DNA of 64,000 nucleotides from Escherichia phage RB14: the sequence record NC_012638.1. One strand, written 5' to 3'. A program made the position numbers and the translations under genes. Under the pieces are notes generated by a model that had not been told where the DNA came from, did no database searches, and worked only from the letters and a program-made list of their open reading frames with translations. Shown here piece after piece: positions 30,338 through 35,662 of the stretch (positions within the stretch are counted from its first letter, which is position 1; each line of letters begins with the position of its first letter).

Positions 30338-30811
30338 TTATTTGAACGATTTAACGTACTGAATAGAACCTTTACTATTCACAAAGGCAATTTTACCATT
30401 TTTGTTATACATGGTAGCAGTACGTTGATAGCCATAAGTTTGTTTACCAGATTGATAACCAACTAATGCAAAATTATCTTCACCCATTTTATTCTGTTTA
30501 GCACGAATGCGTTCATGGCCATGTGCCATAAGAACCTTAGCATCACCTGTTGCAATGGATCGACGAGTTTTTTCATCTTCAACTGTATTAACAAAGTCGT
30601 CAAATGAATCAAATTTAGCATGAGATTTATTATACAGTTTTCCATCTACTGCATAATTATATCCTTGTACATCCATCTCAACTTCTGTACCATCATCCAA
30701 TACAGCAGTGATTTTCTGTCCTTTTTTAAATTTCAAAAGATCAGTAAAAGATTCAGCAATAATTTGAGAATTAATAGCTGCTTCAGTAATAAATTCTTGA
30801 TATGTTTTCAT
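30338..30811 (-). CDS. Internal protein with capsid-targeting sequence (ipII/ipIII locus)
   Basis: 157 aa; N-terminal MKTYQEFITEAA matches the T-even CTS; adjacent to e. Confidence 0.65.
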   Translation of the reverse strand: MKTYQEFITEAAINSQIIAESFTDLLKFKKGQKITAVLDDGTEVEMDVQGYNYAVDGKLYNKSHAKFDSFDDFVNTVEDEKTRRSIATGDAKVLMAHGHERIRAKQNKMGEDNFALVGYQSGKQTYGYQRTATMYNKNGKIAFVNSKGSIQYVKSFK

Positions 30812-30871
30812 GTGTATCCTTTAAATGTAAATATTTTAATTAATAATTTATCTCTTCAAATAACTGTGAAT

Positions 30872-30901
30872 ATACTATCACAATTCTAGGAGAAAGTAAA
30901 T
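30872..30901 (-). promoter_or_regulatory. Early-type promoter
   Basis: Minus strand TTTACT-N17-TAGTAT upstream of IP gene 30338..30811. Confidence 0.45.
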
Positions 30902-30905
30902 AACT

Positions 30906-31400
30906 TTATAGATTTTTATACGCGTCCCAAGTGCCAGTTCTAAACGTAGCGATGACTCGTTTTGCGCGATTAGGTGTTTGATTATACCATCTACTTTTAG
31001 CTAAGTTAACTGCTGCTTCATCCCAGCGTTTTTGTTGAAGCATACGTAAAGAATTAGTAAATCCTGCCACACCGGTTTCTCCCATTTGGAAAACCATATT
31101 AATCAATGCACAACGACGAACCGCATCAAGAGAATCATAAACCGGTTTTAATTTAGCATTTCTCAGAATTCCGCGAACAGCAGCATCAACATCCTGATTA
31201 AAGAGTTTTTCAGCCTCATCTTTTGTAATTACACCATTGCAATTACGCCCAATAGCTTTATCTAATTCAGATTTAGCAACATTAAGTGATGGACTTTTTG
31301 TAAGCAAATGACCGATGCCAATAGTGTAATAGCCTTCTGTGTCTTTATAGATTTTAAGTCTAAGACCTTCATCTATACGTAACATTTCAAATATATTCAT
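30906..31400 (-). CDS. e: Lysozyme (endolysin)
   Basis: 164 aa; identical to T4 lysozyme as remembered except two positions (NVAK for NAAK, VIATF for VITTF). Confidence 0.97.
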
Positions 31401-31436
31401 AATACCTCCTAAGTATTTATAGGAGGTATTTATAAA
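31401..31436 (-). promoter_or_regulatory. Lysozyme e translational-control hairpin with two late promoter motifs
   Basis: ACCTCCT/AGGAGGT inverted repeat sequesters the e SD; two TATAAATA copies at 31414..31421 and 31428..31435. Confidence 0.7.
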
Positions 31437-31892
31437 TTAAAAGAGGCTGTTCATTATTCGGTAAAGTGAAGGACCCATCACATATTGCCACTGAGTACGA
31501 GGAATAAGAGCAAAAGCATCCATCTCTGGAATCATAACGCCATCTTTATTTTCAAAATAAGACTCGCAGCGGCAATTTCTAAACATCTCATGCTCTACTG
31601 GAATCGTATAGTAAAATAGCTGTAAGTCTTTATTACTAGAATATTTAAATACACCTAGGTCTTCTAGAAGGTCTGGATTATAATTGCTAAAGCCAGTCTC
31701 TTCTAAACATTCTCTTCGTGCTGCATCTAGCGCGCTTAAATCAGAATTTTCTACACGGCCCTTTGGAATATCCCAGCGATGGGCCATCATTCCAGGCTTA
31801 CGAGAACCGGTAACACGACCCATAAATAAATCTTTATCTTCTGTCATAAAGATAATACCAGCTGATAATGTTTTCATTTTAATTTCCTGCAT
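31437..31892 (-). CDS. nudE: Nudix hydrolase
   Basis: 151 aa; Nudix box GRVENSD-x7-RRECLEETGF. Confidence 0.8.
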   Translation of the reverse strand: MQEIKMKTLSAGIIFMTEDKDLFMGRVTGSRKPGMMAHRWDIPKGRVENSDLSALDAARRECLEETGFSNYNPDLLEDLGVFKYSSNKDLQLFYYTIPVEHEMFRNCRCESYFENKDGVMIPEMDAFALIPRTQWQYVMGPSLYRIMNSLF

Positions 31893-32362
31893 TCAGTGAT
31901 AAAGTTATTTAAATTTTGAGTATATTTCTTTTCATCAAAAATCTTTTGTTGTCTGCGTAAACGCCATGGCATTTCAATGAACGTATACCATATCCCAGAT
32001 AATATTGCTGCTGTAAAAATATTAACAAGTATGGTTAAAAGAATCCAATCTCCTATTCTGTCCATTGGATTTTTTATAAAAAAATAAAATACAAATGATG
32101 TCACAGGAAGACTAATAATATACCACAGAATTATAATTTTATCTGTGAACCAATCAGCGTTCGTTAACTTAGCGCGACCATTATGAATACACACGAATTT
32201 ATCATCTGTTATAATAGATGGCTTAGCTGCTTGATATCCCATTCTAAACTCCCTAATCAACAAATTTTTCATATCTTCGGAACAACCATTCCAGTCAACT
32301 CTATCAACTGAAATGCCATCATCCCCATCATCTAAATCATACCAGCGAGTTTTTAAAATCAT
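31874..32362 (-). CDS. membrane protein, tandem paralog 1
   Basis: 162 aa; two TM helices; C-terminal ...NFITECRKLK. Confidence 0.5.
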   Translation of the reverse strand: MILKTRWYDLDDGDDGISVDRVDWNGCSEDMKNLLIREFRMGYQAAKPSIITDDKFVCIHNGRAKLTNADWFTDKIIILWYIISLPVTSFVFYFFIKNPMDRIGDWILLTILVNIFTAAILSGIWYTFIEMPWRLRRQQKIFDEKKYTQNLNNFITECRKLK

Positions 32363-32721
32363 TTAATTTTCCTACAATCACTCACAAACTCTTTCACTGA
32401 TTCATTTTCAATATAAGACATGTAGTTGTTATATTCTTTTAATTGTATTTTGTAATCCTTTTTTCTTTGCCAATTTATTTTAAAATTATCATAATGAAAA
32501 TATAATATAATACCAAAAAATGAAAACAATGAAATAATTTTGGTATAGTGAAGTTCACTCCAAACTTCTATTATATTTACTGTGCCGTCAATGTTTAAAA
32601 TAAGACAGTCAATTAACAATCCAAAAAGACTACCCGCAAGAGCTGCAGCCAACGCCACAGCAAAAATTAAAAATGACTCAGGAAACGAATATTTGACTTT
32701 ATTTAGTTTTGGCTTTTGCAT
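32359..32721 (-). CDS. membrane protein, tandem paralog 2
   Basis: 120 aa; two TM helices; C-terminal ...EFVSDCRKIK. Confidence 0.5.
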   Translation of the reverse strand: MQKPKLNKVKYSFPESFLIFAVALAAALAGSLFGLLIDCLILNIDGTVNIIEVWSELHYTKIISLFSFFGIILYFHYDNFKINWQRKKDYKIQLKEYNNYMSYIENESVKEFVSDCRKIK

Positions 32722-34350: not shown

Positions 34351-34527
34351 TTATACTCCGGATAGTTTGTAAACTATTTCAACATCGCCTTTTGCTGCTT
34401 TATAACCTTCAGCCCAAGATACAACCGAGTTTTTATCTGAAGATTCAAATTCTGGCATTGGGCTTTCGCCAATGTTCACGCAGTATGTTTCTTCATTTTC
34501 GTCGAACCAAATAATTAAAGTAGTCAT
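34351..34527 (-). CDS. small hypothetical protein (58 aa)
   Basis: Manually read ORF MTTLIIWFDENEETYCVNIG... Confidence 0.3.
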   Translation of the reverse strand: MTTLIIWFDENEETYCVNIGESPMPEFESSDKNSVVSWAEGYKAAKGDVEIVYKLSGV

Positions 34528-34595
34528 TTATTTCTCCGTTTCTGTATTTGTTTTGATAAGTCTATAATAACACCGTCCTTGGTGTTTGTACACAA

Positions 34596-34859
34596 TTATT
34601 TCATATTATTGAAATATTCTTCTGCGATTTCGTCGTTATCATGGTAAACTTTAGAAGACAGTTTAACATAACCTTCAGCAGTGAACATATTAATCACAAC
34701 CTTTACAGTATACCACTGACCATCTTCATTACCCATTACTGCATAGGTTTCAAACATCGGATGGTCAGGACCAATAACTTTAATATCATTCACTGTACGA
34801 CCAAAATCTTCTGAAACACATTTCATAAAGAAGTTGAACAGTTCACCGTAATTATCCAT
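34596..34859 (-). CDS. hypothetical protein
   Basis: 87 aa from ATG at 34859 (MDNYGELF...); early promoter and conserved leader upstream. Confidence 0.5.
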   Translation of the reverse strand: MDNYGELFNFFMKCVSEDFGRTVNDIKVIGPDHPMFETYAVMGNEDGQWYTVKVVINMFTAEGYVKLSSKVYHDNDEIAEEYFNNMK

Positions 34860-34902
34860 TTTATTCTCCAAGTTGTTTTCTGTATCAGTAGTTGATAGTT
34901 GT

Positions 34903-34932
34903 ATAATACCATAGAAGAACAGGGATGTAAAC
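34903..34932 (-). promoter_or_regulatory. Early promoter
   Basis: Minus strand GTTTACA-N17-TATTAT; leader ACAACTATCAACTACTGATAC. Confidence 0.6.
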
Positions 34933-35063
34933 AGTTTTGTGAAAAAATTTTTAAAAAGTTTTAGGGAATTCTAGGGCGGGGAAGGGCAATTAAAAGATAG
35001 GATAATATATTATAAAGGGTATAAACTAAATGATGCCTAGAGAGGTCTGGAAAGGCCTAGATA

Positions 35064-35090
35064 CCAAAAAGCCCTATCATTTAGATAGGG
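35064..35090 (-). terminator. Rho-independent terminator
   Basis: CCCUAUC-UAAAU-GAUAGGG then CUUUUUGG after ORF 35099..35662. Confidence 0.6.
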
Positions 35091-35098
35091 ATTTAAAA

Positions 35099-35662
35099 TT
35101 ATTTACCTAGTTTAGTTATTATAGCTTCGGCAGCAGCTTTTAGCTTAGATGCAGTGTTAATACGATTTTTAATTTCAGTATAAGCATCGCCAAGAACATC
35201 AAGGCTATCAGAATAAACACTTACACTATTGCGTTCGCTATTTGAAATAGAACCTTTAGTTTTACGATCAAAATCGGTATACACGTCTTGAAGATCGCGG
35301 GCTGCCTTCTTTGCATCATCCAATGCATCAAGAGCTTTATTCAAAGCATTAACATATTTTTTAGTGTCGAACATATTCTTAGAAATTTTGACAGGTGCGC
35401 GTTCAGGAGTAGCTAAGGCAGATTTAGGAACTTGAGCGCCAGATGCTAGTTTCTTAGAAATTTTGAAAAATGCTTTATTGAAATTATTTTCTTGACTCAT
35501 CGTAAAAGAACTATTATCGATGTTATACATTTCAATAGCTTTAGCTTTCCACTTAAGAAAATCGCCACGGTCTTTTGGGTCCAAGTGGAAGAATACTTTA
35601 GTAAGATCTGCTTCAGATGGTAATTTTGCTGCTTCGGTTAAAAATTCGGCATAAGTTTTCAT
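35099..35662 (-). CDS. Internal-protein-like protein with capsid-targeting sequence
   Basis: 187 aa; N-terminal MKTYAEFLTEAA; hairpin terminator downstream. Confidence 0.6.
   Translation of the reverse strand: MKTYAEFLTEAAKLPSEADLTKVFFHLDPKDRGDFLKWKAKAIEMYNIDNSSFTMSQENNFNKAFFKISKKLASGAQVPKSALATPERAPVKISKNMFDTKKYVNALNKALDALDDAKKAARDLQDVYTDFDRKTKGSISNSERNSVSVYSDSLDVLGDAYTEIKNRINTASKLKAAAEAIITKLGK

Follow-up and report, generated by a model that had tools for sequence, protein, structure and literature searches.

Two CTS-bearing genes in the RB14 window

This analysis concerns a stretch of 64,000 nucleotides (nt) of Escherichia phage RB14 (sequence record NC_012638.1; hereafter the window) and two of its minus-strand open reading frames (ORFs), one of 157 amino acids (aa) at 30338..30811 and one of 187 aa at 35099..35662, whose products start with a capsid targeting sequence (CTS) like that of the internal proteins of phage T4. 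The coordinates, lengths and N-termini given for them in the initial annotation of this DNA were recovered unchanged. The window belongs to a T-even phage of the genus Tequatrovirus, its closest genomes being those of RB3, RB5, RB6, RB7, RB9 and RB10 (98 % identity over 97 % of 25 kb).

Gene order is T-even-like. On the minus strand it runs through vs.6, vs.7, vs.8, the 157-aa ORF, e, nudE, e.2 to e.6, a 58-aa ORF, e.8, the 187-aa ORF and homologs of rnaC and rnaD, then ten tRNA genes, tRNA.2-4, ipI, an ip5-type gene and 57B. The 157-aa ORF lies 95 nt downstream of the lysozyme gene e (30906..31400, minus strand), within the vs.8-e interval, and the 187-aa ORF lies between e.8 (34596..34871, minus strand) and the rnaC/rnaD homologs, with the tRNA cluster behind them. 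Both placements (beside e, where T4 has ipII and ipIII, and beyond the e.x block next to the tRNA cluster) had been read correctly from the sequence. The further claim that the two genes occupy positions different from T4 stands for the 187-aa gene, which is at another locus, but not for the 157-aa gene, which shares its interval with denV-ipII-ipIII of T4. The RB3 gene table shows the order of the window, including Ip4, ipI, Ip5 and ten tRNAs, except that the 187-aa gene is missing and that 285 nt separate e.8 from rnaC, as they do in T4.

A six-frame translation of the window contained four matches to the CTS pattern MK[TS][YFW]x[ED][FYL], each at the first codon of a minus-strand ORF, while 60 triplet shuffles contained none, so the motif is far above chance expectation. 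The four carriers are the 157-aa and 187-aa ORFs, IPI and the Ip5-type ORF. The first ten residues of IPIII suffice to bring foreign proteins into the T4 prohead, and within the CTS residues 4 and 7 are important to targeting, those at 8 and 10 to processing (PMC9026906). Both ORFs fit these rules, with an aromatic residue at position 4, Phe at 7, Leu or Ile at 8 and Glu at 10, and both carry the (L/I)-x-E cleavage motif at residues 8-10 (I-T-E in the 157-aa protein, L-T-E in the 187-aa protein). Their CTS codons extend over 30782..30811 (MKTYQEFITE) and 35633..35662 (MKTYAEFLTE), both on the minus strand, and cleavage by gp21 is predicted after Glu10 in each, between I-T-E or L-T-E and the following Ala. 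An AAGGA ribosome-binding site precedes the ATG by 5-6 nt in both genes.

The 157-aa ORF corresponds to Ip4 of T2

The 157-aa ORF (30338..30811, minus strand; starts MKTYQEFITEAA) matched Pfam DUF7412 (PF24183) over residues 1-157 of 157 (E 5.7e-96; 319 bits, with the gathering score at 27). It also matched phrog_3155, 'internal virion protein' (E 6e-102), and its product shows 100 % identity with the T2 protein that is annotated as Ip4. By sequence it is the precursor of the already known Ip4, and the T2-type arrangement is only confirmed here: the window ORF differs in nothing from T2 Ip4 and its relatives (DUF7412, phrog_3155) and has the same vs.8-ip4-e order.

By tblastn, Ip4 was found in 469 phage records, among them T4-like phages of Klebsiella and Salmonella at about 70 % identity. 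Among the labels given to it there are Ip4, 'ipIV internal head protein 4' and 'internal virion protein'. The same kind of search found mature T4 IPIII in 261 records and mature T4 IPII in 198, so Ip4 is at least as common as either. The mature protein was computed at 16.5 kDa with an isoelectric point (pI) of 9.14 and 17 Lys, the T4 internal proteins having pI values of 9.0-9.65. Across 13 family members, down to 61 % identity, F7, E10 and E20 are invariant, and within the family residue 18 is I, L or M; because of this conservation at positions 18 and 20, a second gp21 cleavage after Glu20 (between I-A-E and Ser) is possible and would leave an IPI-like propeptide of 19-20 residues. Two exact copies of TATAAATA, the T4 late-promoter consensus, lie upstream of e (31414..31434) and no strong terminator was found between e and ip4; we infer that ip4 is co-transcribed with e.

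The 187-aa gene: a putative late-gene cassette

Relative to T4 and T2, a stretch of 655 nt is extra in the window by blastn (35091..35745, minus strand), with boundaries precise only to the 28 nt by which the flanking blocks overlap on the T4 side; RB3 likewise lacks the 187-aa gene. Terminator prediction and alignment to T4 place an intrinsic terminator at each cassette boundary: upstream at the 3' end of the rnaC homolog (35753..35776, minus strand) and downstream directly after the 187-aa ORF (35072..35090, minus strand). By sequence alignment, the insert begins where the GGGCTTTTT tail belonging to the rnaC terminator stops, and it ends at the cassette terminator's own GGGCTTTTT tail, so that it sits between the rnaC terminator and the e.8 promoter. 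Inside it, the ORF (35099..35662, minus strand; starts MKTYAEFLTEAA) is preceded by the late-promoter-like GATAAATA (35697..35704, minus strand), which begins 42 nt before the ATG and matches TATAAATA at 7 of 8 positions. No sigma-70-like promoter was found on the minus strand between the upstream terminator and this ATG. The gene is most likely a self-contained late-gene cassette, made up of a late-type promoter motif, a ribosome-binding site, the ORF and a terminator.

The gene is under purifying selection, with a ratio of nonsynonymous to synonymous substitution rates (dN/dS) of 0.06 against the Shfl2 copy. In the Shigella phage CT01 (locus 1501..1989), an in-frame deletion of 25 codons between two KISK repeats leaves the protein otherwise identical and removes exactly the low-confidence linker, which is consistent with a two-domain protein whose linker is dispensable. 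In RB69 (AY303349.1; locus 1501..2063), a 1-nt deletion splits the gene into ORF148c and ORF149c. RB69 is a Mosigvirus and has the Tequatrovirus-type allele at 96 % nucleotide identity; HX01, also a Mosigvirus, has at the same locus a homolog much more distant from the window protein. The RB69 allele suggests either that the gene was recently acquired by lateral transfer and then decayed, or that the sequencing was in error.

The mature 187-aa protein was computed at 19.6 kDa, pI 9.48 and 25 Lys, and mature IPIII (IPIII*) at 20.4 kDa, pI 9.65 and 25 Lys. Comparison of the 187-aa protein with Pfam and NCBIfam gave only sub-threshold coiled-coil-like matches or none, and structure predictions yielded no functional lead.

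A family of 187-aa homologs across T4-like phages

The 187-aa protein belongs to phrog_2280, a family of 'unknown function' (E 1.4e-53, residues 1-181 on profile positions 1-178 of 178). The gene matched 163 phage records, 161 of them at 95-99 % identity, and in all 40 records listed of these 163 it is annotated as hypothetical, as 'Phage protein' or not at all. An exhaustive phmmer search over 1.84 billion representatives returned one full-length cluster and one remote homolog, P0028, which is 30 % identical to the 187-aa protein over its whole length. A profile search then gave P0031 to P0038 (17-28 % identity by alignment); the wider family is visible only by profile search. Relatives with 25-35 % identity are found in five further T4-like genera. 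Three distant homologs (P0028, P0032 and P0033) also match phrog_2280, and P0038 does so only in its N-terminal half. P0033 led by tblastn to 190 further phage records, and among the matches listed all are hypothetical or unannotated.

Eight loci were examined, from Tequatrovirus, Karamvirus, Mosigvirus, Marfavirus, Jiaodavirus, Dhakavirus and two metagenomic contigs. The gene comes after tRNA genes at each of them and, where the genes downstream were identifiable, before e.8. It is likewise preceded at every locus by a hairpin and then by a late-promoter-like NATAAATA ([T/G/C]ATAAATA) at -35 to -43 from the ATG, the exact TATAAATA being present in four. All eight proteins have a CTS-like N-terminus ending in (L/I/T)-x-E. 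Family N-termini include MKTYNEFLNE, MYTFNEFLAE, MITFNEFLNE, MINFKQFIAE, MLKFKDILTE and MKFKDFLTE. In an alignment of 11 sequences, Glu10 is invariant, position 4 is always aromatic, and position 7 is Phe in ten and Ile in one. The CTS is followed in this alignment by a conserved N-domain of about 60 residues (motif ..RMTK.KWQSAMD.VP.GER.DFMKF....QKLYGID), then by a Pro/Ala/Lys-rich linker of variable length and by one of at least two unrelated C-terminal domains; this build of N-domain, linker and alternative C-domains is common to the eight loci. The CTS motif is retained at 17-30 % identity, in relatives with diverged or exchanged mature parts.

Members of phrog_2280 include Shfl2p135, RB14 orf136, RB69ORF148c/149c, HX01 gp043, dhabil_199 and Marfa gp137, and the window ORF shares the tRNA-e.8 position. 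The record annotations examined give no function and make no mention of a CTS, a late-promoter motif or a modular build. Our literature search, conducted outside subscription literature, found no virion proteomic report for this family; the fPS-65/fPS-90 paper holds no proteomics, and the SegB/tRNA-locus paper does not mention the gene. An earlier mention is possible in the subscription literature or in Repoila et al. 1994, both outside the scope of that search. The 187-aa ORF is probably a genuine, previously unannotated internal-protein gene at a third locus, whose synteny is conserved. On one metagenomic T4-like contig (SRR28624380_555336, locus 2092..2526), the distant homolog is directly followed by a gene with Pfam matches to ART-PolyVal / DUF3990 (ADP-ribosyltransferase-like).

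Relation to IPII, IPIII and other internal proteins

T4 IPII has 100 aa and IPIII 193 aa (194 codons with the stop), so that the 100 and 194 aa from which the initial annotation had distinguished the two ORFs were essentially right. When T4 IPII and IPIII were searched over the whole window by tblastn, and also by blastp, only 10-13 CTS residues aligned. Profile comparisons with hhalign aligned the 187-aa family with IPIII and with the Ip4 family over residues 1-25 only, and for the Ip4 family against mature IPII and mature IPIII found nothing. In the comparisons of the two families with the T4 proteins, the probability outside the CTS was 0.2-8 %. Orthology of either ORF to IPII or IPIII was rejected, no similarity beyond the CTS having been found in BLAST or profile comparisons. 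Shfl2 carries Ip4, IpIII and the 187-aa homolog as separate genes.

The proposal that the phage carries a complement of CTS genes different from that of T4 is borne out by these alignments. The protein searches and comparisons among T-even phages that had been suggested as checks gave T2 Ip4 for the one ORF and a family without assigned function for the other; they found the ip4 arrangement in T2, RB3, RB27, RB18 and AR1 and the 187-aa cassette absent from T4, T2 and RB3. Full-length IPII/IPIII orthologs in the T4 arrangement were not found in the window. T2 and T6 have themselves been reported to lack ip2 and ip3 (PMC12373910).

Both window proteins resemble the T4 internal proteins in the N-terminal CTS, the (L/I)-x-E motif, a small, basic, lysine-rich mature part and an accessory presence/absence distribution, and ip4 also shares the promoter/CTS 5' region of ipIII and ipII. 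They differ in that their mature parts have no sequence similarity to those of the T4 proteins, and the 187-aa family differs further in its two-domain build, with a conserved N-domain and alternative C-domains. Two Ip loci are recognised ('the two Ip loci' in the wording of PMC12373910), ipI beside 57B and ipII/ipIII beside e; the 187-aa gene is at neither, but between the tRNA/stable-RNA cluster and e.8.

At the 57B-tRNA.4 interval of the ipI locus, polymorphic Ip cassettes (of the Ip5-Ip12 type) were reportedly described by Repoila et al. in 1994. Like these, the genes discussed here are alternative CTS genes exchanged among T-even phages, with conserved 5' sequence as junction, and the window itself has IPI and Ip5 in that interval. 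They differ from these in that the exchange involving ip4 took place at the e locus, and in that terminator tails (GGGCTTTTT), not CTS homology, delimit the 187-aa cassette.

Predicted packaging, injection and function

We consider it likely, from these features, that both ORFs encode packaged, CTS-processed internal proteins of the T-even head. The first ten residues (MKTY-x-EF-[I/L]-T-E) would serve as CTS, drawing the precursor into the gp22 scaffolding core of the prohead, where the prohead protease gp21 would cleave after Glu10. The basic, lysine-rich mature proteins (about 16.5 kDa, pI 9.1, and 19.6 kDa, pI 9.5) would remain inside the DNA-filled head and be ejected together with the DNA, acting at the first moments of infection. 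For Ip4, we hold this whole course, from packaging into the core and cutting after Glu10 to retention in the head and release along with the DNA, to be very likely; for the 187-aa protein, we would expect the same course with good confidence. Packaging, cleavage, ejection and target are the parts of this scheme that we infer.

The likeliest task of such proteins would be to block one particular host defence, and our best guess for it is a subtype of GmrSD-like type IV restriction enzyme, because this is what T4 Ip1, Ip2 and Ip3 do: they have only the leader in common, and the GmrSD type IV restriction enzyme that is inhibited differs for each of them (PMC12373910). By this analogy an anti-defence role appears the most likely function of both proteins, although we would give it no better than an even chance, and a GmrSD-type target is the leading candidate. 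Phages with 98 % identity differ in whether they carry the 187-aa gene (RB3, for example, does not), as is typically seen for accessory counter-defence genes.

Several points weigh against this interpretation. When ip4-ip10 were assayed against a panel of GmrSD variants, no reproducible inhibition was seen (PMC12373910, whose supplements do not contain the ip sequences), so that the GmrSD hypothesis is already partly negative for Ip4. For both proteins, virion presence, cleavage and ejection are predictions, and the literature search returned neither a proteomic report nor a GmrSD assay for the 187-aa family. In addition, the late-promoter motif of the window copy (GATAAATA) is only a 7/8 match and not an exact one.

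A 187-aa protein that is packaged but mainly structural, i.e. a basic DNA- or scaffold-associated head filler aiding prohead assembly or DNA condensation, would be close to IPIII* in size and charge, in a window that lacks IPIII. Such a role would suit an N-domain kept across six genera, as if for a conserved phage-internal partner, and IPIII mutants do build heads more slowly and give a smaller burst (PMC9026906). Nevertheless, we regard it as improbable: T4, T2 and the near-identical RB3 do without the gene, which is therefore dispensable, and Shfl2 has IpIII plus the 187-aa gene, so the two are not simple substitutes. Moreover, lineages have exchanged the C-terminal half, as would rather be expected of effectors in an arms race, and inhibition of a GmrSD system has now been demonstrated for IPIII itself (PMC12373910).

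Still less probable, in our view, is an unpackaged late cytoplasmic protein whose CTS-like start is a by-product of recombination with ip 5' ends, or chance. It would accord with the hypothetical status of the gene in all records examined, with upstream DNA that, CTS codons apart, is not homologous to other ip 5' regions, and with the lack of virion data in the literature searched. A vestige should have decayed, however, and the invariant Glu10 and aromatic position 4 persist at 17-30 % identity; and since ten CTS residues are reported to be sufficient for packaging foreign proteins (PMC9026906), a late-expressed protein with such an N-terminus should be packaged, whether or not that is its 'purpose'. 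We give hardly any credence to the idea that both proteins are fast-diverged orthologs of IPII and IPIII and the complement the same as in T4. The position of ip4 in the ipII/ipIII interval with a common 5' region, and the length and charge of the 187-aa protein, close to those of IPIII, would favour it, but BLAST and profile alignments are limited to the CTS, Shfl2 has Ip4, IpIII and the 187-aa homolog side by side, and the 187-aa gene is at a different locus with synteny conserved in six genera.

Going beyond packaged internal proteins with a probable anti-defence role, we tentatively put forward that phrog_2280 might represent an overlooked third internal-protein locus across Tevenvirinae at the tRNA/e.8 junction. 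Its products may be modular injected proteins, with an N-domain conserved for packaging, delivery or partner binding and interchangeable C-domains directed against different host defences, possibly other than GmrSD. Of all phage proteins, internal proteins enter the host cytoplasm first, and their catalogue so far (Ip1 to about Ip12) has been drawn from two loci. If true, a third locus, so far without annotation in about 350 sequenced T4-like phages of at least six genera, would add to the candidates for injected counter-defence proteins, the conserved-N/variable-C build would offer a handle for finding new host defence targets, and the proteins could provide a payload-delivery scaffold beyond the bare CTS.

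Cassette exchange at the e locus

The vs.8-e interval reads vs.8-denV-ipII-ipIII-e in T4 and vs.8-Ip4-IpIII-e in Shfl2, and the window shares the vs.8-ip4-e arrangement with T2, RB3, RB27, RB18 and AR1. The DNA of the window ceases to be homologous to T4 at 30338, the ip4 stop codon, a point that in T4 falls at the end of denV; homology restarts on the ipIII side at 30780, within the first 32 nt of the ip4 coding sequence. Upstream of ip4, sequence alignment and blastn (T4 locus 5385 onwards and 4688-4792) delimit a 5' region (30812..30905, minus strand) in common with T4 ipIII, which is also repeated before T4 ipII. It contains an early-type, promoter-like GTTTAC...TAGTAT, which presumably acts as a promoter, and the AAGGA ribosome-binding site (30817..30821, minus strand). 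As T4 homology resumes inside the CTS codons, the alignment identifies the difference between Ip4 and T4 ipII/ipIII as a cassette swap with the conserved promoter-plus-CTS segment as junction, in agreement with published accounts of polymorphic ip genes (PMC3012670, PMC9026906, PMC12373910).

For denV (endonuclease V), tblastn gave no match anywhere in the 64-kb window; a gap at 30245..30337 stands in its place, as in T2 and RB3. T2 is classically more sensitive to ultraviolet light than T4. Compared with T4, vs.8 looks split: T4 residues 26-219 align to a 195-aa ORF (29657..30244, minus strand), and T4 residues 1-32 align to 30213..30308 (minus strand), which is not readable in frame with it. 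In T2, vs.8 is likewise annotated as two fragments. The split gene could be a pseudogene or reflect a frameshift.

Other features of the window

The ipI locus holds two CTS genes in tandem, a T4-type IPI and a T2-type Ip5, and RB3 carries the same pair. Gene ipI (internal protein I; 37981..38268, minus strand) encodes a protein 100 % identical to T4 IPI (Pfam IPI_T4, E 7e-54). The ip5-type gene (38341..38598, minus strand) encodes an 85-aa CTS protein that is 98.8 % identical to T2 Ip5 and matches phrog_3499, 'internal head protein'. The T4 DNA immediately downstream of ipI is matched twice, by stretches of about 84 nt at 38263-38346 and at 38593-38676, and that immediately upstream is matched by 37899-37979.

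Ten tRNA genes (Arg, Asn, Tyr, Met, Thr, Ser, Pro, Gly, Leu and Gln) occupy 36093..36920 on the minus strand, against eight in T4, and the RB3 set is identical. This site has neither segB nor tRNA-Ile, with Asn, Tyr and Met instead. The homologs of the T4 stable RNA genes rnaC and rnaD (35746..36090, minus strand) are 89.6 % identical to T4; an Rfam scan of 34800..37100 returned tRNAs only, there being no Rfam family for rnaC or rnaD. A coding sequence (CDS) of 345-351 nt is annotated over this stretch in T2, Shfl2 and RB69 (RB51ORF141 / RB69ORF150c). In the window, breaks in this frame leave ORFs of 42 and 61 aa, an indication that the CDS annotation in these relatives is spurious.

Within the e-tRNA interval, the product of e.2 (31874..32362, minus strand) has 162 aa versus 102 aa in T4, and the alignment covers only T4 residues 1-97. 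T4 e.7 is replaced by the 58-aa ORF (34351..34527, minus strand), and relatives have an ORF of the same size there (RB14ORF134 / RB69ORF145c). The changes in e.2 and e.7 are further small cassette differences within this interval.

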